The notes: a model not told the origin generated them from the letters alone. A DNA stretch of 64,000 nucleotides from Tannerellaceae bacterium (GCA_031257015.1 JAIRPK010000056.1:14116-78115); one strand, 5' to 3'. Positions 32,319-55,691 are shown, counted from the first letter of the stretch. Numbers and translations are program-made.

Positions 32319-34157
32319 TCATCTCTTTACTACCTTTATACTCCTGGCTTCATTACCCATATCCGCCTCTAAAATATAAACCCCGGAAGGAAGATGACCG
32401 ACATGTATATTTATCGTGCTCTCCGCAGTTGTGTATGTAAAACGAGCGATTGTTCTTCCGCCCATATCCGTGATTTTAATGCTGCGAATTGCCTCATTTT
32501 TAACTGTGCGCACGTGAATATTTTCTCCGGAAATAGCGGCTATTAGCTCGACGGTGTTCTTATTTACTTTTTTCGTGCCAGTTGAGAAGGCAAGGCTGAG
32601 TTCTGCGTTTTTTTGCCCGCGGACTTTTTTCCAGTCGTGTCCATCAGGCTTATAATACATTTGCAAATTGTCGCCATCTACCCAATCATTAATGACATAC
32701 GGGCCTAAGTCCTCTTCAGAACGGGCAATGCCGGCTTCTATCGTATATTGTATGGAATCAAGCATCGCCTTTTTATTCCCTGCCTTGTCGAAAATAAAAA
32801 AGCCTATCGCGCCATTGAAATCCCTCATGCCGTAATCAGCTATGAATGAAAAGTTTAAGGTGAACGGCTCGCCTTTTTGAATAGGACTGTTTACAAATAA
32901 ACCTGTCGTCTCGTAAGTCTCATATTCATAAAAAAACAGTTCATTATCAATGAAGGAACCCTCAACGGCTCTTTTCAGACCGAGAACAGCGTCGTGATTA
33001 TACGAATAGCCAGAGCCGGGCATACTTTCTGCCGGATTGAGAGCGTCCAGAATATAAAACCCATTGGCCGTCCCGCTCCAACCCCAATTGACATGGTAAT
33101 AGCTTTTTCCAGTGCTCCGGTTCCTGGCAAATCCGTCAAGGAGGAACTGATGCCCCTCGGTGCCATCTTCCGTCAAACCTCCGTAGAGAACCAGCCGACC
33201 GGCGGTTAATTCCGCCTGCAATGCGTTGTCCCACTCGTCAAAATTGTAAAGTTCGCGCCATGCCAAATGCAAGCTTTTATCATACCCAAATGTGTTAACA
33301 AGCGCATTTACAGCGTCCCATTCGGTTGCACCGCTTGCCTCCGCACTATAATCCATGCGAACCATCGCCCCGCAGTGGAAAAGCAAAGTGGATACCGCCG
33401 TTGCCTGCGCAGAGGTGTAAAGATTTACATTATTTGACCTCGTGTAGGCATCCAGCATATCGTCCCAAGCGTAGGCCGTATTGAAATTCACGCTAACCGG
33501 AATCCGTTTATCTTTTGTCGTATAACTAACATGTCCCGAAGCCTTTTCAGGCCATCCGTAATACTTCATGGCGATGCCCATTGACGTGGCGACGCAACCA
33601 ACCAGAGAGCGGGAACGACCGTCGCGGGGACAAAGTTCGTTAAACGGCTCTGCCTGGTCCCATTTGGCGGTGGGAAGGAGGGTAACTGTTTCCAATTGGC
33701 TATCAGCCAGGAGGTTAGCAGAAGAAAAAGCCTGCCATTCCAGTAGCCTCTTTTCAGAAGCAACTGCGCCCGCGGCGATGGCCGACGAGATGTTTTTTTC
33801 ATAGCCAGAAAGCCATCGGCTAAGGTTTTCAGGCATATTATGAGCGGAAAAACTACCCTCGGCAGCATATCCGAGTATGGGGGAAGCAACGTCGTCAGCA
33901 GCGACGATGACAAATCCCGCATTGTCGCCGGTATTATAAATGTAAAAAAGAGGTATTTCTTCCGAAGGCTGGAGCGGTTGGACTTTCAAAACGGCGGTAT
34001 AAACCAAATTAACGGATGCGCTCCTTAATACGCCGCCATTCGCCGCAAAAGCCATAGCTATTTCCCTCGCTTTAGCCACATCCACCTGTTTTGCCTTTAC
34101 TAAAAAGATGTTTGATACTATTAAAAAAAGAATAAATGTATATGTCTTTATTTTCAT
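32319..34157 (-). CDS. C10 (streptopain/PrtT-like) cysteine protease with Spi-type prodomain and T9SS C-terminal domain
   Basis: GFVIVAADD prodomain, catalytic GCVAT and GHQF, HVNWGW.G..NGFY, C-terminal LPSGVYIL...KVVKR. Start set at the ATG at 34157 because the upstream TTG overlaps a TAACTTTG box at 34185-34192. Confidence 0.92.
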   Translation of the reverse strand: MKIKTYTFILFLIVSNIFLVKAKQVDVAKAREIAMAFAANGGVLRSASVNLVYTAVLKVQPLQPSEEIPLFYIYNTGDNAGFVIVAADDVASPILGYAAEGSFSAHNMPENLSRWLSGYEKNISSAIAAGAVASEKRLLEWQAFSSANLLADSQLETVTLLPTAKWDQAEPFNELCPRDGRSRSLVGCVATSMGIAMKYYGWPEKASGHVSYTTKDKRIPVSVNFNTAYAWDDMLDAYTRSNNVNLYTSAQATAVSTLLFHCGAMVRMDYSAEASGATEWDAVNALVNTFGYDKSLHLAWRELYNFDEWDNALQAELTAGRLVLYGGLTEDGTEGHQFLLDGFARNRSTGKSYYHVNWGWSGTANGFYILDALNPAESMPGSGYSYNHDAVLGLKRAVEGSFIDNELFFYEYETYETTGLFVNSPIQKGEPFTLNFSFIADYGMRDFNGAIGFFIFDKAGNKKAMLDSIQYTIEAGIARSEEDLGPYVINDWVDGDNLQMYYKPDGHDWKKVRGQKNAELSLAFSTGTKKVNKNTVELIAAISGENIHVRTVKNEAIRSIKITDMGGRTIARFTYTTAESTINIHVGHLPSGVYILEADMGNEARSIKVVKR

Positions 34158-34515
34158 ATAAATTAATTTGTTAAAGAGAATATGCAAAGTTAAGAAAATC
34201 CACTAAATGAAATGATTTTTGTCAAAACCGAAAATCCTATAAGCCCTCAATTATTATTCCTTTGCAAAGGCTACTTTTTAGCGCACAGAATTTTAATCTC
34301 ACCCACCCAGCAAAACCATCCTGATTTTGCAAAACTCTCAATTATCCATCCTAAATTCGCTTAAAGAAAGAACTGTCACTACGGAAATGTCTAATACCCT
34401 CATGGAAAAGCGAACTGCCTCCCTGGCCAATCTCCCAAATCCAGTATCAAAAGCCCAAACCAGCATTGGGAAGCCTTTATCCCTCTTTTTCAATCACGAT
34501 TTCATCGCAGAAAAA

Positions 34516-40874: not shown

Positions 40875-40899
40875 ACTAAAGCTGAGAACAGGTATAAAC

Positions 40900-40939
40900 A
40901 AAAAAAACTCCAAGGCAAATATCTCCTTGGAGTTTTTTT
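40900..40939. terminator. Bidirectional intrinsic terminator between typA and the pilin cluster
   Basis: AAAAAAACTCCAAGG-N9-CCTTGGAGTTTTTTT perfect stem. Confidence 0.9.
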
Positions 40940-40961
40940 GTTTCGTCTTTATGCGAGTTGT

Positions 40962-42596
40962 TTATTTTTTAAGCTCAACATCGACTGTATCCCACGGAAG
41001 GATTTGAACGGTGGCCGTTGCATGAGTGTCGCCAGAACCGGAAGGCGTAGATTGAATCCTGTCCAAATCCTCAAGACACGGTGCGCCTATATATCCAAAG
41101 CTCGTAATAGTCCCGCGGTATTGCTTGTTGCGAAGGAGACCTCCGTCAGCGTTGCCGGATATGTCGAAGCGGTAATAGCATATGTAATTTTCGTATTTAT
41201 AAATCTTATGGCGTTTAGGTTCATAGCTTGACGTATATCCATCGGAGCTGCCGTCGTTCTCAAGGAAATAAACCACGCTCTTGGCCAAGTCCTCTGTTTG
41301 GTAGAATTTGAAGAAATCAAGGTAAGTACGATTCAACATAATACTGTCTCTTTTCAGAATGTCCGGAAGATTACGTATCCTGCCTGAGCCAGGAACATTT
41401 TCAACGTCATAATTAGAATTAAAATCAATATAATATGCCTCTGGAAAAAGAGTGGAGCTATAAGTGACAGCATTGACTATATGTGCAGTATTATCGAATG
41501 AGACAGACGTAACTTGCGCACCTGGCAATTGAGGCTTGAATCTGGCCTTGACAACAATATAAGTGCTATTCCCAACTTCGTCTAAAACATTCTCAGGAAC
41601 ATAATAATAATCAGAGGGCGTCGCTGACGATAAACTCTTTAAAGGAATATTTATCTCGGAGCTGTCGCCGTTCGACCACCAGAACGGTTTGTATGTCGCT
41701 ATTTCAGAGAGATCCAAGCCAGCAAGCGCATCGTGAAATGGAACCAGCGGTTTACTGTTTGCATCCGTATTTTTAAATAACGCCACAGCCCTGTTCTGGT
41801 TCCTGACGCCCCAATACAAATCGTCCAGGGTGCCACAATATTTTACAACAGACGAAGTCCATTTACTGCTAAAAGTTCCGCCTGAGTATCCTGTTATTGT
41901 CACCTTCGCAACCGTCCTTTGCAAATCAATAGAGAAATGATTCTTCGTCGAATCGGAGCCGGACTGCGATTCTTCTGAAGATATGTTCGGACGGACAATG
42001 CGAAGACTCGAACTATCCGACTGTGAATTACTGAAGACCATGTAAGGCGTAGTCATGTCGGAATAGTCCAGCGAGGAGAGCGGCGCAGGAGAGGAAGATA
42101 AGGCAGGACGGCCGAAGTCTATCTCGTGAAGAAAGAGTTTTCCGGCGCTGCTCGCGGTCTTGCTGGCGACCAGCTTGTCAAGCGTGAGGCCTTTCTGGTT
42201 GCCGAAGCGCCATGATTTGTTGTGTTCGTTGGCGAGGACAAAGATCCTTTTGGTTCCGGAAGTTAGCGGAACGGTAGCGGTTTGGTTGCCGGTGGTGAGA
42301 ACCGTGGTATCGACCTCGCATGTCCCGTTGTTGGCGCTGGTGTGAGAGTAAATCATCAGGCGCACACTCTTGATGGAATCCTTCTCGGCGGCGTCGCTTG
42401 TTAGCGGGGCCTTGGTTGAGCCTGTGACGGCGAAGTTGAAGGTGGCGTAAGTTACGTCCCTGGGGCTTTCAGTCTCATTTTCGGATAAACCGGCGGGGAC
42501 TTCCTTTACTGCGCACCCGGACAAGATTGCGGCGACGGTGGCCGCGAACAAAATAGTTGAATAGCTTTTCATTTTCTTATTATTAAAAAAGTTCAT
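40962..42596 (-). CDS. Type V pilus Mfa1/FimA-like pilin, paralog 5 (lipoprotein)
   Basis: Lipobox LSGC, STKAPL, RLMIY and KRIFVLAN N-domain, LQRTVAKV, YYRFDI..LRNKQY.G.I, Pro-containing tail and ILPWDTVDVELKK. Confidence 0.85.
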   Translation of the reverse strand: MNFFNNKKMKSYSTILFAATVAAILSGCAVKEVPAGLSENETESPRDVTYATFNFAVTGSTKAPLTSDAAEKDSIKSVRLMIYSHTSANNGTCEVDTTVLTTGNQTATVPLTSGTKRIFVLANEHNKSWRFGNQKGLTLDKLVASKTASSAGKLFLHEIDFGRPALSSSPAPLSSLDYSDMTTPYMVFSNSQSDSSSLRIVRPNISSEESQSGSDSTKNHFSIDLQRTVAKVTITGYSGGTFSSKWTSSVVKYCGTLDDLYWGVRNQNRAVALFKNTDANSKPLVPFHDALAGLDLSEIATYKPFWWSNGDSSEINIPLKSLSSATPSDYYYVPENVLDEVGNSTYIVVKARFKPQLPGAQVTSVSFDNTAHIVNAVTYSSTLFPEAYYIDFNSNYDVENVPGSGRIRNLPDILKRDSIMLNRTYLDFFKFYQTEDLAKSVVYFLENDGSSDGYTSSYEPKRHKIYKYENYICYYRFDISGNADGGLLRNKQYRGTITSFGYIGAPCLEDLDRIQSTPSGSGDTHATATVQILPWDTVDVELKK

Positions 42597-42653
42597 ATTG
42601 GATATTTATTCTTATTGTAACTGTTCGTTAAGCCTTGCGGTGTTCTGTTACAT

Positions 42654-44270
42654 TCATCGGGCGTAACGGTTGATTCGCGGAGAGTGTCGCATGATTCTCG
42701 AAGAATCGGCTGATGTGCCGGCGTTCTCTTCCACAGTTTCCCAAGGCAGGATTCGGAGGCTGACGACAGCTTTGGGAGCTACTTTGGGAGCGGCGTAAAT
42801 ATTATCAAGGTCGGTAAGCCGGGGCGCTCCCAAATCGGTAAATTCCGTAATGGTTCCACGGTATTGCCGGTTGCGAATTATGCCGCCCTCGGCATTGTCG
42901 GACATGTCGAAGCGGTAGTAGCATACTCCGTTTTCGTATGTATCTATTTTCAGTATCTCCGGCTCATAGTTTGACAAATAGCCGGCATCGCTGTTTTTAT
43001 GCTCAAGGATATAGCTCACGCGCTTTGCATCATATATATTGCTGAAAAGGGAGCCGGGGGAAGATGACGGGGCGTTAAAGATTGTTTCGTCGATGAGCCT
43101 CCTGTCGAGAGCAGCTTTATAGGCCTCCGGGTTAAGGCGATGGAAAGTCATCGGCACGCGGTATGACATTAGCGTCACATCCAGCTTGCCTATTGCAACG
43201 TCAAACGTCGCGCTGCGGATAACCGTCATGTCTGCCGGAGTAAATTCCGCCTTGACGGCAATGTAAGTGCTGTTTCTCTCCTCGTCATAAACATTCTCCG
43301 GCACATAGTAATACTCCGGCAGCGAATCCACATCGGCCACCGGGATGTTTATCTCCCTACCCGTGAGATCATTCTTCCACCAGAAGACTTTGTAGAGGTC
43401 TGTCCACTCAGGATTATAACCCTCTGTGATGTTGTAAAACGGGGGCTGGAGCTTGCCGTTCACGTCCGTACTTCTGAACAGAGCCACTGCACGGCTTTGA
43501 TTCCTTACTCCCCAGTATATTTCACCGAACGTTCCGGCGATGCTTTCTGCGGAAGCGATTTCAGAACCGGAGGAATTGAACATGGTTACTTTCGCAAGCG
43601 TTCTTTGCAGCTCAATTGTAAAGCGGTTCGTCGTCGAATCTGCCTGTTCGTCCTGCGATGCTTCTGCGGATATGTCCGGATGCAAATTCCTCAAGCTCGA
43701 CGAATCTGACTGAGCATTGCTGAACACCATATAAGGCAAGGCCATGTCTGTATAATCCAGCGACACGAGGGGGAGCAGGTACAGCGACGCTCCGAAATCC
43801 GGCGTCCCGAAATCTATTTCGTGCAGGAACAATTTCCCGCCGCCGGCCATGGTTCGGGAGTCCAGCAGTTGAAGCAGGCTTTGACCTTTCTGGTTCGCGA
43901 AGCGCCAGGTCTTGTCATGCTCATTGGCGACGACGAATATGCGCTTGGCGCCGACGGTTACGAGAACGGTGGCTGACGCTGAATCGGAGGCCATAATGGT
44001 GGTGTCAACCTCGCAAAGGCCGAGATTGCCTGCCTTATGGGCGTATATCATTAATCGAAAGCTTTTAATTGAATCTTTTTCGCCGGCGTTGCCGACCAAG
44101 GCGGCTTTGGTGGCTCCTTCAACGGCGAAATCGAATGTTGCGAAGGTTAATGCCGGAGCAGGCTCGACTGTTTCTTCTTCCCATATAACCGGAACTTCCC
44201 TGACGGCGCAGCCCGACAAAATTACAGCTGCAATTGCAGCCGCGAACAGGGGTGTTAGATGGATATTCAT
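42654..44270 (-). CDS. Type V pilus Mfa1/FimA-like pilin, paralog 4, altered and extended C-terminus
   Basis: LSGC, ATKAAL, KRIFVVAN, LQRTLAKV, YYRFDM..IRNRQY; ends ILPWETVEENAGTSADSSRIMRHSPRINRYAR. Confidence 0.85.
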   Translation of the reverse strand: MNIHLTPLFAAAIAAVILSGCAVREVPVIWEEETVEPAPALTFATFDFAVEGATKAALVGNAGEKDSIKSFRLMIYAHKAGNLGLCEVDTTIMASDSASATVLVTVGAKRIFVVANEHDKTWRFANQKGQSLLQLLDSRTMAGGGKLFLHEIDFGTPDFGASLYLLPLVSLDYTDMALPYMVFSNAQSDSSSLRNLHPDISAEASQDEQADSTTNRFTIELQRTLAKVTMFNSSGSEIASAESIAGTFGEIYWGVRNQSRAVALFRSTDVNGKLQPPFYNITEGYNPEWTDLYKVFWWKNDLTGREINIPVADVDSLPEYYYVPENVYDEERNSTYIAVKAEFTPADMTVIRSATFDVAIGKLDVTLMSYRVPMTFHRLNPEAYKAALDRRLIDETIFNAPSSSPGSLFSNIYDAKRVSYILEHKNSDAGYLSNYEPEILKIDTYENGVCYYRFDMSDNAEGGIIRNRQYRGTITEFTDLGAPRLTDLDNIYAAPKVAPKAVVSLRILPWETVEENAGTSADSSRIMRHSPRINRYAR

Positions 44271-44379
44271 TGATTCATTTGAATTTAATCTTTTTATTCT
44301 TCAAAAACAATCGGGCTTTTACGGCTCGACCTTTAATTGCGAATTGTCAGCGATAAGAGAGGCTCGACGGACAACGGCA

Positions 44380-44387
44380 CAAATGTA
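44380..44387 (-). promoter_or_regulatory. -7 promoter box for pilin unit 2
   Basis: Minus strand TACATTTG followed by TGCCGTTG; same context as the box at 50353-50360. Confidence 0.7.
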
Positions 44388-44626
44388 GGGATAAAAACGG
44401 GCGCATCATACTGTTCTTATCTTTTCCCTGAAGCCTCTATTGCATAAACAGGCCATGTTTAACAATGCTTTCCTGCGCCATGATACTGCTGAAACCGACT
44501 GTTAACCAGAGTTATTCCGGGCGGGGGCGATTAGTTTCGCGCATGTTTTTTTTCTTGTTCCAGAACAGGTATAATTCATTTTGCTTGAAGCTATGAGTTC
44601 CATTTTTAAGCTTTCATGTATGCCAT

Positions 44627-45098
44627 GACATCTTCCGAAGATGTCTTGACATGTGGCGAACGTCTCTAAACATGTAATGAACGTCTTTAAAGACGTGACG
44701 AACGTCTCTAGACATGTAAAGAACGTCTTTAAAGACGTAACGAACGTCTCTAGACCTGTAATGAACGTCTTTAATGACGTGATGAACGTCTCTAGACATG
44801 TAATGAACGTCTTTAAAGACGTGACGAACGTCTCTAGACATGTAATGAACGTCTTTAAAGACGTGGCGAACGTCTCTAGACATGTAATGAACGTCTTTAA
44901 AGACGTAACGAACGTCTCTAGACATGTAATGAACGTCTTTAAAGACGTAATGAACGTCTCTAAAGACGTGGCGAACGTCTCTAGACATGTAATGAACGTC
45001 TTTAAAGCCGTAACGAACGTCTCTAGACATGTGGCGAACGTCTTTAAAGACGTGACGAACGTCTCTAGACATGTAATGAACGTCTTTAAAAAAGTTCG
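44627..45098. repeat. 21-bp tandem array, 21 units, mostly alternating A/B (42-bp higher order), palindromic
   Basis: GAACGTC every 21 bp from 44658 to 45078. A = GAACGTCTCTAGACATGTAAT, B = GAACGTCTTTAAAGACGTGAC. Confidence 0.97.
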
Positions 45099-45196
45099 AT
45101 GCTTCCTTAAAACAGAAAATAGATGCTCCGGTCTTTTGTTTTGGCCATCTGATGAGGCGCAAGGCAAAGGCTGCGTCTTAATCCTCTCCGCCGCAT

Positions 45197-45233
45197 AAAA
45201 AAACAGAGACGCGCCGTTCGTTGCGCGTCTCTA
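45197..45233 (-). terminator. Intrinsic terminator of pilin unit 1
   Basis: Minus strand AGAGACGCGC-N8-GCGCGTCTCT followed by GTTTTTTT. Confidence 0.85.
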
Positions 45234-45339
45234 TCCCTTGAGTCTAAACGTTGGGAGTAAGGGGCTGCCGGTTGTGCGGCTCGCCCTTTATCCCATGATT
45301 CTTTACCGTAGCATCTACATACGGTCTTTGTGCTTCCGA

Positions 45340-46929
45340 TTATTTCTTCAGCTCGACATCAACTATCACCCACGGCAATATCTCTACGGTAGCCGTGGCA
45401 TGGGTGCCGGCCGGCCCGCCTTCAGGCGTGGTTTTGAAATCGTCGAGGAGGGAAAGCCTGGGCAGACCGATGCCGCGAAAATTGGTTATCCGTCCACGGT
45501 ATTGCTTGTTACGCAACAGGCCGCCGTCTTTGTTGTCCGCTATGTCGAAGCGGTAATAGCATGTGCCGCCTTCATACGTTTCTATCTTTAGTCTGATTGG
45601 CTTATAATCGGCCTGATAACCGACAGCGGTGCCTTGTTCGAGGAAATAAATTAAGCGCCTGGCAATATCCTTGGTGGGGAATGTGGCTTTTTTATGAAGT
45701 TGTCCATTGAATGCGCTCTCGTCAATCGTCAAATTGGCGGCTTCCTCAGTTTCTGGTGGATAATCATAATTGACGCTGTAATATGTCACACCCTTGTCAA
45801 TATTCTTATAGCTGGTGCCGGTTATCTTATGCGAAGCCTCATCAACGGTAAAACCTGTAACTACAACATTTGGTTTGAAATTGGCCTTAACCACAATGTA
45901 GGTGCTATTCCCTGCCTTATCATAAAGATTCTCCGGAACATAATAATTCGACGAAACAGAGTTTCCGAGAGGTATGTTTATTTCCGCTCCGGATTCATCG
46001 CCTGCCCACCAGTACGGATTGTAGATCGACCAGTCCGTATCGTCCAAACCATCCAGTACGTTGAGGAACGGTGGCTGCACCTTGCCGCTCCCGTCAACAA
46101 GCTTGAATATGGAAATAGCCCGGCTCTGGTTCCTTACGCCCCAGTAGGTGTCTGACAACGCTCCATCTTCGTGGCGCTGACCGGTTCCAGTACTATAACT
46201 TGTAGTATAAATACCCACTTTAGCGACTGTCCGTTGCAGAACCATCCTGAAATGATTGGAGCGTTCCGTTGCGGTATCGGCTTGCGACTGTGCGAGAGTG
46301 ATGTCCGGCAGGATTTCAAACAGGTTAGGCCATTCCGCTGTTGCACTGGTTGGTAAAGCAGCCTGTGCATTGCTGAAAATCATATCGGGCGTTGCGATGC
46401 TGGAGTAGTCCAGGGATGTTAGAGGCTCGGCCGTCCCGGCGCTCAGGGCTGGTTCTCCGAAATTAATATCGTGCAGGGCGAGTTTTCCTCCGCTGGCGGC
46501 TGTCCGTTCTTCCAGCAACTTGGAGAGGGCATTGCCTTTCTGGTTGGGAATACGCCAGCTCTTGCTGTAATCGTTTGCGATTACAAGAATGTATTTCCAC
46601 CCGGATTCGAGAGAGAGGGCGGCGGATTCGCTATCGTTGGTCATGATGGTGGTATCAATCTCGCATGAGCCGGTTGAGTTGCTCAGGCGTTTGTATATCA
46701 TCAATCGTATGCTCTTGATGGAATCTTTCTCGGCGGCATCACCGGCTAACGGGGCCTTGGTGACTCCATCGACGGAAAATGAGAACGTGGCGTAGCTTGG
46801 AACGCCGGCTGACGGGGTTTCTTCTTCTTCAAAAGCGACAGGCGCTTCCTTGACTGCACAGCTTGACAGCATTGTGGCGGCGATAGTGGCAGCGAAAACA
46901 GATAATAGATGTTTAGTCATTCTTTTCAT
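45340..46929 (-). CDS. Type V pilus Mfa1/FimA-like pilin, paralog 3
   Basis: LSSC, VTKAPL, LQRTVAKV, YWGVRNQSRA, YYRFDI..LLRNKQY and ILPWVIVDVELKK. Confidence 0.85.
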   Translation of the reverse strand: MKRMTKHLLSVFAATIAATMLSSCAVKEAPVAFEEEETPSAGVPSYATFSFSVDGVTKAPLAGDAAEKDSIKSIRLMIYKRLSNSTGSCEIDTTIMTNDSESAALSLESGWKYILVIANDYSKSWRIPNQKGNALSKLLEERTAASGGKLALHDINFGEPALSAGTAEPLTSLDYSSIATPDMIFSNAQAALPTSATAEWPNLFEILPDITLAQSQADTATERSNHFRMVLQRTVAKVGIYTTSYSTGTGQRHEDGALSDTYWGVRNQSRAISIFKLVDGSGKVQPPFLNVLDGLDDTDWSIYNPYWWAGDESGAEINIPLGNSVSSNYYVPENLYDKAGNSTYIVVKANFKPNVVVTGFTVDEASHKITGTSYKNIDKGVTYYSVNYDYPPETEEAANLTIDESAFNGQLHKKATFPTKDIARRLIYFLEQGTAVGYQADYKPIRLKIETYEGGTCYYRFDIADNKDGGLLRNKQYRGRITNFRGIGLPRLSLLDDFKTTPEGGPAGTHATATVEILPWVIVDVELKK

Positions 46930-46961
46930 TGTGTGAAATAGTTTTTATTATTAATATTAAA

Positions 46962-48518
46962 TTACTTTAGGTCAACAGTAACTGTCTCCCACGGCAATAT
47001 CAGTATGGTTGCGCTTGCATGTGTCGAGCTTTGAGCAACCGTCGGGATTTCGTCAAGTTCGTCAGGCCTGGAGAATCCCAGTTTAGTGAACTCCGTTATC
47101 CTTCCAAGATATTGTTTGTTGCGCAGCAAGCCTCCGTCGGTATTGTCGGAGATGTTGAAGCGATAGTAGCAGACGCCGTTAGTATAGGTATCAATTTTTA
47201 GTTTCTCAGGAGTATAGCCGGCTGTCCACAATGCAGGGCTACCGGAATGTTCAAGCATGCAGGCAATCAGTGTTGCATCGTCCTGTTTGGCAAAAACCAG
47301 TCCTTCGATGTCGGAATATGAGCCGAGAGAGGAGTAATTCACGCCGGATGAGGCTAACGATGCAGGATTAATGCGGTAGAATGTTGCGGGGGCAGTTGTC
47401 GTGCCTTTCTCAATCGAGGTAATACTCTGGACAACTCCGTCTTCCTCGTCGTAAGCAATCGACTTGACCAGATTATTGGCTGCCGGGATGAATGAAGCCT
47501 TTGCTGCAATGTAGGTGCTGTTACCCATGGTTCCGAACACATTCTCCGGGACATAATAGTATCTCTCCTCATCGCCTTCGGCGTTCACCGTAAGGTTTAT
47601 CTCCACGCCCGTCTGGTCGCCCGTCCACCAGTATGGCTTATAGATCGTAACATTAGTGAGGTCGAGGCCTGCCAGGACGTTGTAGAGAGGTGAGCGAACC
47701 TTTCCGTCTGCTCCTGTTTCCTTAAACAGAGCTACTGCCCGGTTCTGGTTCCTTACGCCCCAGAATAGATTGCTCAGACCTCCACTCAGAGATTCTGCAT
47801 TAATGTTCATCGAGGCGGCTACATTATTGACGGTAACTTTCGCAACAACTCTCTGCACTGGGATTGTGAAATGATTCTTCGACGCATCGGCTGTTTCGCT
47901 CTGGGATTCCTCCAGCGAGATGTCCGGCAGAACCGTAAAGATGCTCGACGACGTTGCCTGCGAATTGCAAAAGACCATTTTGGGTGTCACAATGCTGGAA
48001 TAGTTTAACGCTGTAAGTGCTGCGGGCGGCGTCCCTGCCAGTAGAGGCGTTCCGAAATCAATCTCATGCAGGAAGAGTTTGTTTCCGCTTGTCTCCGTCT
48101 TTGTCCCAATCAAATCCGTTAACGCTCGTCCTACTTGTCCTGATAGAAATGAGTTCACGCCTGGTTCGTTAGCAATCACGAAGATGCGCTTTGCTCCTGG
48201 GCTGACTTTTAGCGATGACGTCCTTGTGGAAGTAGTCGTAAGATTTGTATCAATCTCACAGATGCCGGAATTATCCCCTGCGTGAGCGTAAATCAGCAAG
48301 CGGATTTTTGCAATATCGCTCGTCTCGTTCTCGTCACTCGTAAGAGGAGCCTTGGTTTCTCCCTCAATGTTGACGTCAAGCGTCATATAGGTGGCATCAC
48401 TTGTCGGTTCAGGAGTTTCTTCCTCAATAGAAACGGGAGTTTCCTTAACCGAACAACTCGATAGAAAAGCAGCAGCTACGGCTGCAAACAAAAAAGAAAG
48501 CAGATTTTTTTTCATCAT
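46962..48518 (-). CDS. Type V pilus Mfa1/FimA-like pilin, paralog 2
   Basis: LSSC, ETKAPL, KRIFVIAN, VQRVVAKV, YYRFNI..LLRNKQY and ILPWETVTVDLK. Confidence 0.85.
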   Translation of the reverse strand: MMKKNLLSFLFAAVAAAFLSSCSVKETPVSIEEETPEPTSDATYMTLDVNIEGETKAPLTSDENETSDIAKIRLLIYAHAGDNSGICEIDTNLTTTSTRTSSLKVSPGAKRIFVIANEPGVNSFLSGQVGRALTDLIGTKTETSGNKLFLHEIDFGTPLLAGTPPAALTALNYSSIVTPKMVFCNSQATSSSIFTVLPDISLEESQSETADASKNHFTIPVQRVVAKVTVNNVAASMNINAESLSGGLSNLFWGVRNQNRAVALFKETGADGKVRSPLYNVLAGLDLTNVTIYKPYWWTGDQTGVEINLTVNAEGDEERYYYVPENVFGTMGNSTYIAAKASFIPAANNLVKSIAYDEEDGVVQSITSIEKGTTTAPATFYRINPASLASSGVNYSSLGSYSDIEGLVFAKQDDATLIACMLEHSGSPALWTAGYTPEKLKIDTYTNGVCYYRFNISDNTDGGLLRNKQYLGRITEFTKLGFSRPDELDEIPTVAQSSTHASATILILPWETVTVDLK

Positions 48519-48699
48519 TTGAATTTAATAGATATGTTTATGTATAGCGCGGACTTGTTATAAATGTTCTCTTAAGCCTTGAGATGCCAGGCACCACATT
48601 GCGGAACTTCAACGTCATGCGTCTCTCCACAAGAAATAGCCATTCTGCCTCAAAAGTCTAATCGAAAAAGAACAATCTTTAGGAGTCCGTTAGTATTTG

Positions 48700-50238
48700 T
48701 CATTTTAAGTCCAGTACCAGCGTATCCCAGGACATAATCTGCACCCCGGACGCTCCCTGTCTCCCACCGATAGACATCGGCTTAATCTCGTCAAGCAGTT
48801 CTATCCGTGCAGCTCCCACTCCTCCAAAGGAGGTAATCTTCCCTCGATACTGTTTATTGCGCAGCAGCCCTCCGTCGGCATTGTTCGATATGTCAAAGCG
48901 ATAGTATGAAATGCCGTTCTCGTGCGTTTCAATCTTCAGCCTCACCGGTTCATAGCCTGCAGGATAAGACGAAATGTCGCCGTCATGCTCAAGGAAATAG
49001 GCAACGCGCCTTGCTTCCTCGATATTCGTAAACGGCTGCCCGACGGCAATCAAATTATTGAGCCGGAAAAGATCAATCGTTATAGCGGATGCTTCCTCCG
49101 TTTCTGGCGAAGCATTATAATTAATGGTATAGTAAGTCTGATGTGCAGGAAGCCTTAGCGTCTCAACGTCCGAAACTGTCCCCTTGTCTTCGTTAAAAAA
49201 AACTCTGTCAATGCAGTATGCCGGTTTGAAATTCGCCTTGACCACAATATAGGTACTGTTCCCCGTGCTGCCATAAACATTCTCCGGGACATAATAATAA
49301 TTCGCCACTGATGCTCCCAGATCCATTGGGATGTTCACATCCTCGCCTGCCACATCGCCCGTCCACCAGTACGGTTTATAGTCCGAAATATCTGAAGGCC
49401 ACGACAAGTCGAAGAACGGCGGACTCACCCTGCCTCCTTCGACAGTCTTGCGGAATAGCGCTACTGCCCTGTTCTGATTCCTTACACCCCAGTAGAGGTC
49501 ATCATAATCTCCGCTGATATAATCGTTCTCCGTATAATTCAAGTTCGCAGCACAGAAAACCGTCACCTTCGCCACAGCCCTTTGCATACTAATCCTGAAA
49601 TGATTCTTCAACGAATCCCCCGGACTGTTCAGCGTTTCCTCCTGCGACACATTCGGAAGCACTGTGCGAATGCTCGCCGAATCCGCTTGCGAATTACTAA
49701 AGACCATATAAGGTTTAACAAGGTCAGAATAGTCCACCGACGTAAGCGGCTCAATAAGCTCTGAGCTGCTAAGAGCTGGCGTTCCGAAATCAATCTCATG
49801 CAAGAACAAATGACCACCCCTTGCGGGATTTTTGTCAATAATCATCTCCCTCAGGCTATGCCCCTTCTGGTTCGGGATGCGCCAGGACTTGTCGTGCTCG
49901 TTGGCAATAACGAAAATGCGCTTCTCTCCTGGACTGACCGGGATAGCCACAGAAGCGGTCATATATGTGGTGTCCACTTCGCAAACACCATCATTCCCGG
50001 TTGTATGCTCATATATCATCATGCGTGTGCTAAGGAGCGATTCAGACTCGTCAGCGTCGCTCGTCATCGAAGTCTTGGAAGTTCCTGCAACGGAGAAGCT
50101 GAACGTAGCGTAGGTAACATCCTTCGCAGACACATCTCCTTCTCCCGCCCATCCAACGAGAGTTTCCTTCACCGTACAACTTGACAAAACCGCAACTGCA
50201 ACGGTAGCCTTAAGCAAATAGGTTAGATAGAATTTCAT
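48700..50238 (-). CDS. Type V pilus Mfa1/FimA-like pilin, paralog 1
   Basis: LSSC, TSKTSM, KRIFVIAN, MQRAVAKV, YYRFDI..LLRNKQY and IMSWDTLVLDLK. Confidence 0.85.
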   Translation of the reverse strand: MKFYLTYLLKATVAVAVLSSCTVKETLVGWAGEGDVSAKDVTYATFSFSVAGTSKTSMTSDADESESLLSTRMMIYEHTTGNDGVCEVDTTYMTASVAIPVSPGEKRIFVIANEHDKSWRIPNQKGHSLREMIIDKNPARGGHLFLHEIDFGTPALSSSELIEPLTSVDYSDLVKPYMVFSNSQADSASIRTVLPNVSQEETLNSPGDSLKNHFRISMQRAVAKVTVFCAANLNYTENDYISGDYDDLYWGVRNQNRAVALFRKTVEGGRVSPPFFDLSWPSDISDYKPYWWTGDVAGEDVNIPMDLGASVANYYYVPENVYGSTGNSTYIVVKANFKPAYCIDRVFFNEDKGTVSDVETLRLPAHQTYYTINYNASPETEEASAITIDLFRLNNLIAVGQPFTNIEEARRVAYFLEHDGDISSYPAGYEPVRLKIETHENGISYYRFDISNNADGGLLRNKQYRGKITSFGGVGAARIELLDEIKPMSIGGRQGASGVQIMSWDTLVLDLK

Positions 50239-50352
50239 TTTTCATTTGAATTTAACAGAAATTTATACATTTCAAAACAAATCGGCTCTTTTCAACGCAG
50301 CCTTTACTTTTCAACTCTGCCTGCTGAATTTGATTATCATCAAGCAACGGCG

Positions 50353-50360
50353 CAAAATTA
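50353..50360 (-). promoter_or_regulatory. -7 promoter box for pilin unit 1
   Basis: Minus strand TAATTTTG followed by CGCCGTTG, about 115 nt upstream of the start codon. Confidence 0.7.
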
Positions 50361-50807
50361 GGAGAAAAAATAACTCTTAATACATTTTTTCATGGAAATT
50401 TTCGTTGAATTTGTCAAGCCTCTAATAATCAGCAATTAATTTATACCTCATTTAATATAAGGCGATTAGCCTCTTTTTATCCCACAACACTTTTGTAACA
50501 GTTTCGCTATGATTGCTATGTAAATCAACCTCTTATTAAGACATTCTTGTCATTCCTCGCAACATTAAATATCCTCCTATGAAAAATCTCATGATACTCC
50601 CTGCACCAGCTATTAATATGCCCGTTGAGCAACCAGAATTTTAATACTACAAAAAAAAGCTTATCACTCACTGCAAAATAATCATACAGTCACTCCAACA
50701 AATTCGATGTTAATGTTTACATTTTTTACCTTAGTGCTAAAAATGAAAATGAAAAGACCTGATTTTTTATAAAAAAACTATATTTGCGGATTGATAATAA
50801 ACAAGAA

Positions 50808-54856: not shown

Positions 54857-55691
54857 CTGCGCAAGCATGCCAACCCACTTGCTGGTTCAAGTCCAATACG
54901 GAGGTCGGTAGTTACCAACCGTTGGCCCAAAGCAAGGGTGTCCGTAGCGATGCGGAATCTGAAGGAAGCCGGCGGCAAAGTCCTGAACTGAGAACACGAA
55001 CGACATAAGACATGTTCCGCCGGACGAGTTTGCTTAACAGAACGAAGTCCAATAACTACCCGGAGGCGGTGGATGTAAATGTCGCAGTTACATGGGATGT
55101 AGCTGAAAAGTTGTCTTACCTTGGGAGGTCTCACGGACGTGCATAAGGCATATCCAGAAGCTCAGAGTAAAGCTTGCCGGGAGAAGTCAGCAGAAGCAAT
55201 AGTAATACGGACACAAGCCCGCGGAGCGAAAGAAAGCATGAAACGGGACTCTTACAAAGTATGAAGGGCTGAAACTTATCAAAAGGAGAAGATAATGAAG
55301 CTACCTTATGCAGGGAAGAAAGCAGAAAATATAGAAAGATAGCTACCGTCAGAAGGTCAGGTCGGAAACCAGCAGATATGACGAAGCGCATACTTGCGTT
55401 GGGAGTGACTGAAAACACCCTCATGGAAGTGCATTTTACGGAAGAACATCTGTGTTGGGGCGCATACTTGCGCCGTCGAACCTTAATCTTGCATACAGGC
55501 AAGTGAAACGCTACAGAGGAACGTATGGCGTGGACAAAATGGATACGGATGCCTTGCTGCCGTATCTTCTTGAGCATAAGGAAAGCCTGGCAGCATCTCT
55601 TTATTCAGGGACATACCGTCCCAATCCTGTTCGTCAAGTAGAGATACTCATTCAGCAGGCAATCAATCAGGTATTATCGCCCATATATGAA
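54857..55691 (+). mobile_element. Decayed, 3'-truncated class IIC group II intron with RT/maturase pseudogene
   Basis: Starts 6 nt after a terminator hairpin, the IIC target preference. The ORF remnant from the ATG at 55308 reads MQGRKQKI*KDSY..., with frameshifts, then ILAPSNLNLAYRQVK..GVDKM..YRPNPVRQVEI and LIQQAINQVLSPIYE. The LGIP..DR segment is missing and no domain V/VI was seen. Confidence 0.88.

Follow-up and report, generated by a model that had tools for sequence, protein, structure and literature searches.

Five tandem, diverged Mfa1-family stalk pilin genes without neighbouring anchor or tip genes in a termite-gut Tannerellaceae bacterium

Type V pili are the chief adhesive fibres of Bacteroidales, and their mechanism is known almost wholly from two Porphyromonas gingivalis operons. 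In a termite-gut Bacteroidales bacterium of the family Tannerellaceae, five co-oriented pilin genes stand in tandem, and the question that they raise is how such stalk-like proteins might work without anchor and tip genes beside them. The stretch of DNA analysed here (the window) is 64,000 nucleotides long. A first-pass annotation had described five tandem ORFs of 512–544 amino acids (aa) at 40962–50238; we found them at exactly these coordinates, all on the minus strand, as follows (bits and E-values are for the NF038041 profile).

48700..50238, minus strand: P5, stalk-type pilin paralog, 512 aa, gene 1 of predicted unit A; 98.6 bits, E 4.9e-28; lipobox Cys21, loop Lys55, C-terminus ...GVQIMSWDTLVLDLK
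46962..48518, minus strand: P4, stalk-type pilin paralog, 518 aa; 145.3 bits; lipobox Cys22, loop Lys56, C-terminus ...ILILPWETVTVDLK
45340..46929, minus strand: P3, stalk-type pilin paralog, 529 aa, 32 nt from P4 and final gene of predicted unit A; 105.6 bits, E 3.8e-30; lipobox Cys24, loop Lys58, C-terminus ...VEILPWVIVDVELKK
42654..44270, minus strand: P2, pilin paralog, 538 aa, gene 1 of predicted unit B; 91.7 bits, E 5.8e-26; Cys21 and Lys55 both normal, 28-aa tail after Trp510, ETVEENAGTSADSSRIMRHSPRINRYAR
40962..42596, minus strand: P1, stalk-type pilin paralog, 544-aa ORF; 127.5 bits; C-terminus ...VQILPWDTVDVELKK

All five genes are full length, each with its own start codon and signal peptide, and are thus intact, as the annotation had it. 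For P1 the second ATG, at 42572, is the more likely start and gives a protein of 536 aa, the NCBI form. A lipobox, L-S-[GS]-C, follows the hydrophobic N-terminus in every copy (Cys20–24; Cys28 in the 544-aa P1), and by this motif the five are predicted lipoproteins. The locus is single-copy, with a k-mer depth equal to that of its flanks; it was seen in termite-gut runs from three studies, and the genes are intact across several strains and samples. Among 22 listed strain SNPs, a crude count gave 12 synonymous and 10 non-synonymous changes. Pairwise amino-acid identity among the copies is 43–50%, at which synonymous sites are saturated and dN/dS between paralogs is uninformative.

To what family do these proteins belong? 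An HMM search matched NF038041, the Mfa1 family, over the full length of all five (E 6e-26 down to 1e-42), bearing out the proposed Mfa1-like identity. The curated cut-off of 130 bits was exceeded by P4 alone, with P1, P2, P3 and P5 below it. The same search gave no Mfa2 (PF08842) match in P1–P5 at E ≤ 1, and anchor pilins measure ∼300–350 aa as against 512–544 aa here. AlphaFold models (P4, pLDDT 81.6; P2, pLDDT 80.9; pTM 0.79) showed two beta-sandwich (transthyretin-like) domains, and the same fold is inferred for P1, P3 and P5 because they share 43–50% identity with the modelled copies. Foldseek placed Mfa1, 4jrf and FimA as best matches of both models, each with probability 1.00. Both matched the Mfa1 stalk (5nf3/5nf2) and BACOVA_01548 (4jrf) at E 1e-13 to 1e-16, the top hits of P4 being 5nf3 (E 6e-16) and 4jrf (E 1e-14). 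Matches to Mfa3 (∼2e-8 to 3e-8), to Mfa2 (5nfi, 1e-4 to 6e-4) and, for P4, to Mfa4 (2e-4) were weaker. Profile searches against the PDB required a 50-sequence family profile, which matched 4jrf over its full length (E 1e-23) and Mfa1 (E 1e-13); a profile of the five sequences gave no match. Several of the PDB structural relatives are labelled merely 'putative cell adhesion protein'.

Both models thus have the pilin fold, with Mfa1 the best match, and no copy is of the anchor type. A tip pilin would combine this fold with the absence of C-terminal donor strands, and four of the copies carry the donor motif. In P4 an anchor strand (43–51) is followed by a low-pLDDT loop that carries Lys56; this beta1–beta2 loop is of low pLDDT in the P2 model as well. 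Residues 495–508 of P4 have pLDDT <50; with the C-terminal strands placed at such low confidence, the models are weak evidence as to the donor strands. Together, these data support the assignment of P1–P5 as Mfa1-family, stalk-type type V pilins.

The annotation had further described an identical motif scaffold (HEIDFG.P.L, FSN.Q, WGVRNQ.RA, YYVPEN, YYRFDI..RN.QY, ILPW) and a segment between KA.F.P and YYRF that differs greatly from copy to copy. The scaffold is real, 'identical' being a slight overstatement: P3 has LHDINFG, P4 has FCNSQ and YYRFNI, P2 has YYRFDM, and P5 has IMSW for ILPW. The hypervariable block is equally real; over P4 residues ∼352–411 mean pairwise identity falls to 0.13–0.21, compared with 0.64–0.76 in the conserved cores, and the alignment supports a concentration of variation in this one block of the C-terminal domain. 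The lipobox Cys, the anchor strand and the loop Lys (Lys54–58) are retained in all five copies. That Lys aligns with the R of 'GTRA' in 4jrf, a position occupied by K or R in 48 of 50 family members. The C-terminal region ranks among the best-conserved parts of the proteins: P1, P3, P4 and P5 end in ..[IV].I[LM][PS]W plus 8–9 residues in which hydrophobic positions alternate, as in Mfa1, and a tail of 8–11 residues past the invariant Trp is found in 46 of 50 family members.

The exception within the array is P2, which the annotation had not singled out. Its 28-residue tail is polar and Arg-rich, a type seen in only 1 of the 50 family members, and residues 512–538 have pLDDT <50 and are predicted to be disordered, with no final beta-C strand. 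A frameshift was rejected as the cause, as no alternative reading frame restores the canonical ending. Despite its tail, the fold of P2 is still best matched by Mfa1; the protein is tip-like in one respect, keeping beta14 without a canonical beta-C, yet its sequence and fold make it a stalk paralog. As P2 lacks the canonical C-terminal donor-strand end, the five copies are not equivalent. P2 is probably unable to donate normally and, having lost this end, may act instead as a distal cap or as a non-polymerising surface protein.

To place the array in its surroundings, we searched the rest of the window and the intergenic regions. No other ORF in the 64 kb matches the family HMM and none has PF08842, confirming that anchor and tip genes are absent from the window; nor did we find there the conventional arrangement of a stalk gene beside an Mfa2/FimB anchor and accessory or tip genes. 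The flanking genes are housekeeping genes, with the locus lying between typA and an HD-domain/ppiD/rlmN block. No Lys-specific protease was found, the sole nearby T9SS protease being of family C10. The following elements accompany the genes.

50353..50360, minus strand: candidate promoter TAATTTTG, then CGCCGTTG, 115 nt before the P5 start codon
50241..50255, minus strand: leader TTAAATTCAAATGAA, a 15-mer directly ahead of the P5 start
45195..45239, minus strand: intrinsic terminator past P3, a 17-bp GC-rich hairpin plus U7, -25 kcal/mol
44594..45116, no strand assigned: tandem repeat array, ∼25 units of 21 bp in two alternating variants, 42-bp period
44380..44387, minus strand: candidate promoter TACATTTG, then TGCCGTTG, 110 nt before the P2 start codon
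40896..40943, no strand assigned: terminator between P1 and typA, a perfect inverted repeat of 15 nt flanked on either side by A/T runs, -21.6 kcal/mol

These signals predict two transcription units, P5-P4-P3 (A) and P2-P1 (B). TAnnTTTG fits the Bacteroidetes -7 promoter consensus and occurs once in the 545 nt upstream of P5 (TAATTTTG) and once in the 1069 nt between P3 and P2 (TACATTTG); the two upstream regions can be aligned with each other. The leader TTAAATTCAAATGAA recurs before P2 (44274–44288) and, with one mismatch, before P4 (48514–48528), three matches where 0.01 would be expected, and it also precedes the stalk genes in conventional operons of relatives. The hairpin at 45195..45239 is predicted to close unit A, and 40896..40943 is a bidirectional terminator common to P1 and the convergent typA/bipA. 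Between the terminator of unit A and the promoter of unit B lies the 21-bp array, in which a 16-nt palindrome, ACGTCTTTAAAGACGT, stands every 42 bp (11 matches versus 0.02 expected). The array is a neighbour that may be linked to the pilin system, a candidate only. Rfam searches of the intergenic regions gave only sub-threshold matches, caused by palindromes, and three ORFs through the array (44502–45167, 44614–45162 and 44653–45198) were judged by-products of the stop-free repeat.

How did the array arise? P1–P5 and a tandem pair from another Tannerellaceae MAG (LBH04_10260/10265) form one clade with 100% bootstrap, adjoining the solo genes P0008 and P0009; P1 is nearest to the pair, at 59–62% identity. 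The paralog expansion that the annotation proposed is old and lineage-specific. A history of pairwise duplication (P4-P3 and P2-P1 pairs) is unsupported, as branching within the clade is star-like (bootstrap ≤0.28). Relatives occur in two contexts. In some loci (L003/L004, L012/L013 and L001) a solo gene lies within housekeeping genes, and two MAGs keep solo orthologues at the same syntenic site among housekeeping genes; in others (L002, L006/L007, L009 and L014) the order is that of a conventional operon, DUF3575-DUF3868-stalk-Mfa2-two large proteins-AraC. One genome, GCA_025999635.1, has both a conventional operon (stalk P0007, L002) and a solo copy (P0008, L003), and the sample with the window locus, SRR14710896 (L010, L005), also has conventional operons L007 (P0010) and L014 (P0014). 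Relatives of the clade are few, a search of 1.84 billion cluster representatives giving 35 proteins at E ≤ 1e-30. Word-indexed homologue searches returned almost solely the window proteins and the LBH04 pair, a scan of GTDB representatives one locus, and two JGI metagenome scans none and one distant operon, respectively.

Comparison with known systems places the array within this landscape. Mfa1, the stalk of the P. gingivalis Mfa pilus (5NF2/5NF3), belongs to the same HMM family, and no structure matches better. In common with the window copies it has the lipoprotein signal, anchor strand, basic loop residue, two beta-sandwich domains and, P2 apart, a C-terminal ..LPW followed by ∼9 donor-strand residues (PMC13655056). 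Differences are an identity of only 13–15% in structural alignment, a loop Arg where Lys stands here, and a gene setting, the mfa1-5 cluster, that supplies anchor Mfa2 and accessory Mfa3-5; the five stalk genes of the window have no such neighbours. BACOVA_01548 of Bacteroides ovatus (4JRF), a structural-genomics target known from its structure alone, gave the full-length profile match and is a top structural match, with a GTRA loop against ETKA here and ..NPW plus a tail at its C-terminus. This protein was the template for modelling Ffp1 (PGN_1808), the 'third' P. gingivalis fimbrillin (PMC5351860, PMC11316588), and no other solved structure comes closer to the window family in sequence. Ffp1 is a ∼50-kDa lipoprotein pilin with no identified accessory gene (PMC5351860, PMC11316588) and is processed after Lys55 (PMC5351860), where Lys54–58 are the candidates here. 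The likeness is one of description, in stand-alone genes, Lys54–58 and the 4jrf match (E 1e-23). Ffp1 has been described as single-copy and restricted to Porphyromonas, the only genus in which profile matches at a threshold of E 1e-100 were reported (PMC11316588), whereas the window family also occurs in Mfa2-containing operons. Those termite-gut Bacteroidales operons (L002, L006/L007, L009, L014) hold the nearest stalks outside the orphan clade (30–38% identity), with the same 15-nt leader ahead of the start codon. They differ in DUF3575 and DUF3868 genes upstream, in genes for Mfa2 (PF08842), a ∼450-aa protein and an ∼800–930-aa protein downstream, and in flanking AraC regulators, all of which the window locus lacks. 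In Porphyromonas macacae, type V pilus genes are tandem-duplicated and diverged to ∼53% identity (PMC11316588); there whole mfa loci (stalk, anchor and tips) were duplicated twice, and here the stalk gene alone, five times.

We consider it fairly probable that the locus is an ancient five-fold expansion of an orphan stalk pilin, giving accessory-free, Ffp1-like filaments with a distinct exposed C-terminal lobe on each copy; the same moderate confidence, given to this explanation as a whole, covers its descent from the stalk gene of a conventional DUF3575-DUF3868-stalk-Mfa2-tip-tip operon. For the transcription, cleavage, polymerisation and function of P1–P5 we infer the following course. A stalk gene with its 15-nt translation leader would have been copied from an operon into the housekeeping region between typA and HD-domain/ppiD/rlmN, and would have expanded in tandem to five in a termite-gut Tannerellaceae lineage. 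Each product would be exported as a lipoprotein and held at the outer membrane through its lipidated beta1 anchor strand, until a Lys/Arg-specific surface protease cleaved the beta1–beta2 loop at the conserved Lys (residues 54–58). The C-terminal donor strands of the next subunit (..THA.ATV.ILPW plus 8–9 residues) could then occupy the emptied groove. Such a filament would have no dedicated anchor or tip, the last-added, still-lipidated subunit serving as its tether. Ffp1 has been proposed to assemble in this way, as recombinant Mfa1 does in vitro. As the polymerisation interface would be common and the exposed lobe near-wholly different, the filaments would differ in binding or antigenic surface.

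The first-pass annotation had instead proposed alternative or mixed stalk subunits that receive an Mfa2-type anchor and tips from a conventional operon elsewhere in the genome. The coexistence of operon stalk and solo copy in GCA_025999635.1, the two operons of the subfamily (L007, L014) in SRR14710896 together with the window locus, and the start-codon leader common to operon stalk genes and P5, P4 and P2 all speak for this. However, what ties the SRR14710896 operons to the window is a shared metagenome. The P0010 operon piece has a GC content of 0.40 versus 0.46 and, in X1, a k-mer depth of 7.7 versus 16 for the window (an indirect value, from a contig touching the shared leader). The window copies are only 30–33% identical to those operon stalks, with a different last strand, and the syntenic solo orthologues in two MAGs suggest independent function. 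Polymerisation itself needs no anchors or tips: recombinant Mfa1 polymerises after RgpB cleavage, its last residue being essential (PMC13655056), and Ffp1, cut after Lys55, forms filaments with no accessory proteins identified (PMC5351860, PMC11316588). By analogy, anchor and tip proteins would not be mechanistically required here, so 'encoded elsewhere' is not the sole option. We do not think it the most economical one, and regard it as rather unlikely. It is decidedly improbable, in our estimate, that the five form a minimal pilus system of stalk duplicates, in which P1, P3, P4 and P5, their donor strands near-identical, co-polymerise into mosaic filaments and P2 is recruited as cap. P2 would then accept a donor strand, having lost its own, a tip function evolved from a stalk gene, and the palindromic 21/42-bp array before P2-P1 could set the ratio of cap to stalk.

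Could the copies have ceased to be pilus subunits, keeping the pilin fold but acting as monomeric, lipid-anchored adhesins or binding proteins of the cell surface? Accessory genes are absent, four of the five copies score under the NCBIfam cut-off, P2 shows that decay of the donor end is possible, and several structural relatives in the PDB are named only as putative cell adhesion proteins. Nevertheless, P1, P3, P4 and P5 have preserved, despite 50–57% divergence, the features that serve strand exchange only, namely the basic loop residue and a tail of fixed length in which hydrophobic residues alternate, and conservation in the C-terminal region is among the highest; we hold this reading to be improbable. 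Tandem diverged copies with one hypervariable block also recall a variation system, either an expressed gene with silent cassettes (pilE/pilS-like) or an invertible-promoter switch, and phase-variable Mfa1-type fimbriae are known in Phocaeicola vulgatus (PMC12940148). Yet every copy has a start codon, a signal peptide and full length, and DNA identity between copies is at most ∼80% over ≤130 nt, which gives no indication of recent gene conversion. No promoter-flanking inverted repeats were found around 50239–50783 or 44271–44500, no recombinase gene among the window genes scanned, and no joints or inversions in the contigs of four runs, except in one contig from another locus. A variation system is thus largely refuted, and we rate it as extremely improbable.

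Overall, the locus is an unusual gene arrangement inside a well-known adhesin family, with no new kind of system or mechanism. It forms with its solo relatives a small clade of stalk pilins that left the operon. Orphan stalk genes persist for long among housekeeping genes and in one lineage have multiplied to five diverged copies. If the orphan stalk pilins do polymerise alone, accessory-free filaments of the Ffp1 type would extend beyond Porphyromonas, the array would be a natural experiment on which residues of the strand-exchange interface are fixed and which are free, and P2 would represent a naturally occurring copy whose donor end is defective. As to termite-gut ecology, the array suggests that an uncultured Tannerellaceae lineage has diversified its surfaces for attachment.

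The five pilin genes P1–P5 lie co-oriented on the minus strand at exactly the coordinates of the first-pass annotation, which had been made by a model from the sequence only, with P5 transcribed first, followed by P4, P3, P2 and P1.

40962-42596, minus strand: P1, open reading frame of 544 aa
42654-44270, minus strand: P2, open reading frame of 538 aa
44594-45116: tandem array of ~25 units of 21 bp, two alternating variants, 42-bp period
45340-46929, minus strand: P3, open reading frame of 529 aa
46962-48518, minus strand: P4, open reading frame of 518 aa
48700-50238, minus strand: P5, open reading frame of 512 aa
Beside P1, convergent with it: typA/bipA, a housekeeping neighbour
Other side of the array: a 189-aa gene without a Pfam match, then a ppiD-like gene, then rlmN

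The second ATG is the more probable start of P1, giving 536 aa as in the NCBI form. The five proteins are 43–50% identical in pairwise comparison, and each begins with a hydrophobic segment that ends in L-S-[GS]-C. The motif scaffold that the annotation had called identical was found in all five, but with small deviations (LHDINFG in P3; FCNSQ and YYRFNI in P4; YYRFDM in P2; IMSW in P5). Sliding-window analysis likewise recovered the strongly variable block described between conserved cores: pairwise identity averaged 0.13–0.21 across P4 residues ~352–411 and 0.64–0.76 in the cores on both sides. The locus is real and single-copy, as its k-mer depth of 16 in termite-gut metagenome run X1 equals that of its flanks, and it was also present in runs of two further studies with a few SNPs and no disruptions. 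A crude count of 22 of the listed strain SNPs (12 synonymous, 10 non-synonymous, zero stop codons) suggests purifying selection on the array, on the basis of those 22 only.

All five proteins were covered end to end by NCBIfam NF038041 ('Mfa1 family fimbria major subunit'; E 6e-26 to 3.5e-42), the curated cut-off of which (130) was passed by P4 alone (145 bits), with P1 just under at 127.5. Among the Pfam models that the annotation had named as a check, P_gingi_FimA and Fimbrillin_C matched P1–P5 weakly, and Mfa2 had zero matches among them. AlphaFold models of P4 and P2, built on an alignment of 50 sequences that an exhaustive profile search had supplied, are both confident (pLDDT 81.6 for P4 and 80.9 for P2; pTM 0.79), and each has two beta-rich domains. 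Foldseek searches of the PDB with these models placed the Porphyromonas gingivalis stalk pilin Mfa1 (5nf3/5nf2) and BACOVA_01548 of Bacteroides ovatus (4jrf) at the top (E 1e-13 to 6e-16), with FimA ranking lower; matches to the adaptor Mfa3 (~2e-8 to 3e-8), the anchor Mfa2 (1e-4 to 6e-4) and the tip Mfa4 (2e-4, P4 model) were weaker. At the sequence level, the pilin-family profile aligned with the whole of 4jrf (E 1e-23) and with Mfa1 as three pieces (E 1e-13). These results assign the fold to the large, Mfa1-like stalk class of type V pilins, and none of P1–P5 is an anchor. The family is small: the exhaustive search of 1.84 billion cluster representatives recovered 235 proteins (E<=1e-3), of which 35 reached E<=1e-30.

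The annotation's observation that the array lacks a recognisable anchor or tip gene held throughout the 64-kb window, where the family HMM matched only P1–P5 among 218 stop-to-stop open frames of at least 80 aa. No Mfa2, DUF3575/DUF3868, AraC regulator or recombinase was found among the window genes scanned, and farther out lie ribosomal proteins, EF-G, aspS, uvrD and other housekeeping genes. A C10 (streptopain-like) peptidase of 622 aa (32319-34187, minus strand), a secreted cysteine protease that combines a Spi-type inhibitor propeptide with a T9SS C-terminal sorting domain, is encoded ~7 kb from the array; it is not known to cut specifically at Lys or Arg. Just past rlmN, Rfam detected a full-model group-II-D1D4-3 intron RNA (54941-55107, plus strand, 115 bits); no plus-strand ORF of at least 150 aa was listed in the next ~1.1 kb and no D5-D6 match was seen; it is a candidate for a degraded group II intron or one devoid of an ORF. 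EF-G of the window is 85–90% identical to proteins of Tannerellaceae MAGs, Parabacteroides, Macellibacteroides and Massilibacteroides, and a collection of 15 billion proteins contained no relative more than 90% identical to its EF-G, AspRS or TypA/BipA. The host, found in termite-gut and other gut metagenomes of three studies, is therefore an undescribed, poorly sampled Tannerellaceae lineage from the termite gut.

Two transcription units, P5-P4-P3 and P2-P1, are predicted from promoter motifs, terminator-like structures and short gaps. TAnnTTTG, the Bacteroidetes -7 promoter consensus, occurs exactly once in the 545 nt upstream of P5, 115 nt before the start codon, and exactly once in the 1069-nt P3-P2 interval, 110 nt before the P2 start codon; both copies are followed by [CT]GCCGTTG, and the two upstream regions can be aligned. 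P3 is followed by a GC-rich hairpin of 17 bp with a U7 run (-25 kcal/mol), and the interval from P1 to typA contains a perfect 15-nt inverted repeat with A/T runs on both sides. The gaps P4-P3 and P2-P1 measure 32 and 57 nt; the P5-P4 gap (181 nt) lacks a promoter motif as well as a clear terminator. The 21-bp tandem array sits between the P3 terminator and the promoter-like motif of P2, and carries a perfect 16-nt palindrome, ACGTCTTTAAAGACGT, every 42 bp (11 matches versus 0.02 expected). Short-read assemblies are interrupted at this array, where the k-mer depth climbs from 16 to ~214, and loose contig ends are a hint that variant copies exist in other sequence surroundings. Rfam gave nothing above threshold for this array, and ORFs across it look like by-products.

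Directly 5' of the start codons of P5 (50241-50255), P4 (48514-48528) and P2 (44274-44288) is a 15-nt leader, TTAAATTCAAATGAA, which P3 and P1 lack and which contains an ATG a few bases 5' of the annotated start. The same leader stands before the stalk gene in conventional operons from a number of termite-gut Bacteroidales (L002 ~9990, L006 ~3990, L007 ~140, L009 ~9990). A contig in metagenome runs X1 and X2 touching 50233-50255 and 44278-44298 joins leader-like pieces and runs into MKKYSKFFAIAA.., the start of P0010, which is the stalk gene of operon L007. Its depth reaches roughly half the value of the window locus (7.7 versus 16 in X1, 3.2 versus ~5 in X2), and it may come from a related population instead of the window genome.

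Relatives beyond the nearest ones occur in two settings. The conventional operons that include the stalk genes P0007, P0010, P0012 and P0014 run DUF3575, DUF3868, stalk, Mfa2 (PF08842), a ~430-530-aa protein and a ~770-930-aa protein, with AraC regulators adjacent. In contrast to these, P0008, P0009 and the L001 gene stand solo amid housekeeping genes; the site of P0009 in one MAG is syntenic with that of L001 in another. Solo sister-group pilins (L012 10001-11563, L001 345-1907) lie upstream of nitronate monooxygenase-like and M3 peptidase genes in two MAGs, and in L012 and L013 a 106-aa ORF comes right after the solo pilin stop codon. The nearest proteins outside the window are the adjacent LBH04_10260 and LBH04_10265 of another Tannerellaceae MAG (74% identical mutually, 59–62% to P1). 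A neighbour-joining tree united P1–P5 and this pair in one clade (100% bootstrap) with star-like branching within, the solo genes as closest outgroup, and the pair as sister to P1 (100%). By this tree, the five-way split predates the separation of the two organisms. As the leader is common to operon stalk genes and P5, P4 and P2, the most economical history is that a stalk gene left an operon with its leader, became an orphan and, in this lineage, gave rise to five copies, which then diverged.

Mfa1-type stalk pilins require a lipidated Cys, an N-terminal anchor strand, a protease-cut beta1-beta2 loop (at Arg49 in Mfa1) and the C-terminal donor strands beta14 and beta-C, and removing just the last residue of Mfa1 abolishes pili (PMC13655056). 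In P1–P5 a loop modelled with low confidence comes after the anchor strand (residues 43-51 of P4) and carries Lys54-58; of 50 family members, 25 have K and 23 have R at this position, which aligns with the Arg of 'GTRA' in 4jrf. The tail past an invariant Trp has 8–11 residues in 46 of the 50, and those of P1 (DTVDVELKK), P3 (VIVDVELKK), P4 (ETVTVDLK) and P5 (DTLVLDLK) belong to a region aligning with Mfa1 ..VTVLPWKVHSYEV. These four are thus predicted from sequence to retain all features needed by a stalk subunit. P2, in contrast, carries 28 polar, Arg-rich residues beyond Trp510 (ETVEENAGTSADSSRIMRHSPRINRYAR; window 42654-42740, the 3' end of the gene), the sole such case among 50 relatives; they lack an alternating hydrophobic pattern and are predicted to be disordered (pLDDT <50, no strand). 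P2 retains its acceptor side and has probably lost a working donor end. No frame change restores the family ending. Two strain SNPs fall inside this tail, one synonymous and one Ile-to-Thr.

How might such proteins assemble? Type V assembly needs neither usher nor chaperone. Recombinant Mfa1 polymerises after its loop is cut by RgpB (PMC13655056), and the P. gingivalis orphan fimbrillin PGN_1808/Ffp1, modelled on BACOVA_01548 and cleaved after Lys55, forms filaments of 2–3 nm by 200–400 nm with no identified accessory component (PMC5351860, PMC11316588). The window proteins resemble Ffp1 in Lys position, relationship to BACOVA_01548 and orphan state, and by this analogy accessory-free filament formation would be their most likely mechanism. 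Each subunit would be exported as a lipoprotein and cleaved at the loop Lys by a putative Lys/Arg-specific surface protease; donor strands would then fill the groove of the preceding subunit, and the newest, still-lipidated subunit would hold the fibre on the membrane. P2 would be confined to the distal end or not polymerise.

The first-pass annotation, whose observation is borne out and whose interpretation finds partial support, had instead supposed that anchors and tips come from elsewhere; its stalk-type assignment stands, and this supply is possible. One MAG does contain an operon together with a solo copy, and the sample with the window locus also contains two conventional operons, a sample-level link. 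The one depth estimate obtained for these operons amounts to roughly half the window-locus value, and the GC content is lower than at the window locus. That P1–P5 are monomeric surface adhesins is a weakened reading, because four copies retain features that serve assembly only and P2 illustrates how their decay looks. A silent-cassette or invertible-promoter system at the array is essentially excluded.

Overall, this is a type V stalk-pilin locus, a known kind, and orphan pilins (Ffp1) have already been described; what is unusual is the architecture of five diverged stalk genes and nothing else, and the small orphan clade related to operon stalks. In P. macacae whole mfa loci are tandemly duplicated (PMC11316588), whereas this array comprises stalk genes only, in five copies, for which the literature searched, limited in extent, contained no description. 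Conservation of the N-terminal anchor strand and the C-terminal donor region, together with a lobe of the C-terminal domain that is almost unrelated between copies, is consistent with an interface common to the copies and exposed surfaces particular to each paralog. Because P1, P3 and P4 have nearly the same donor strands, mixed filaments are conceivable.
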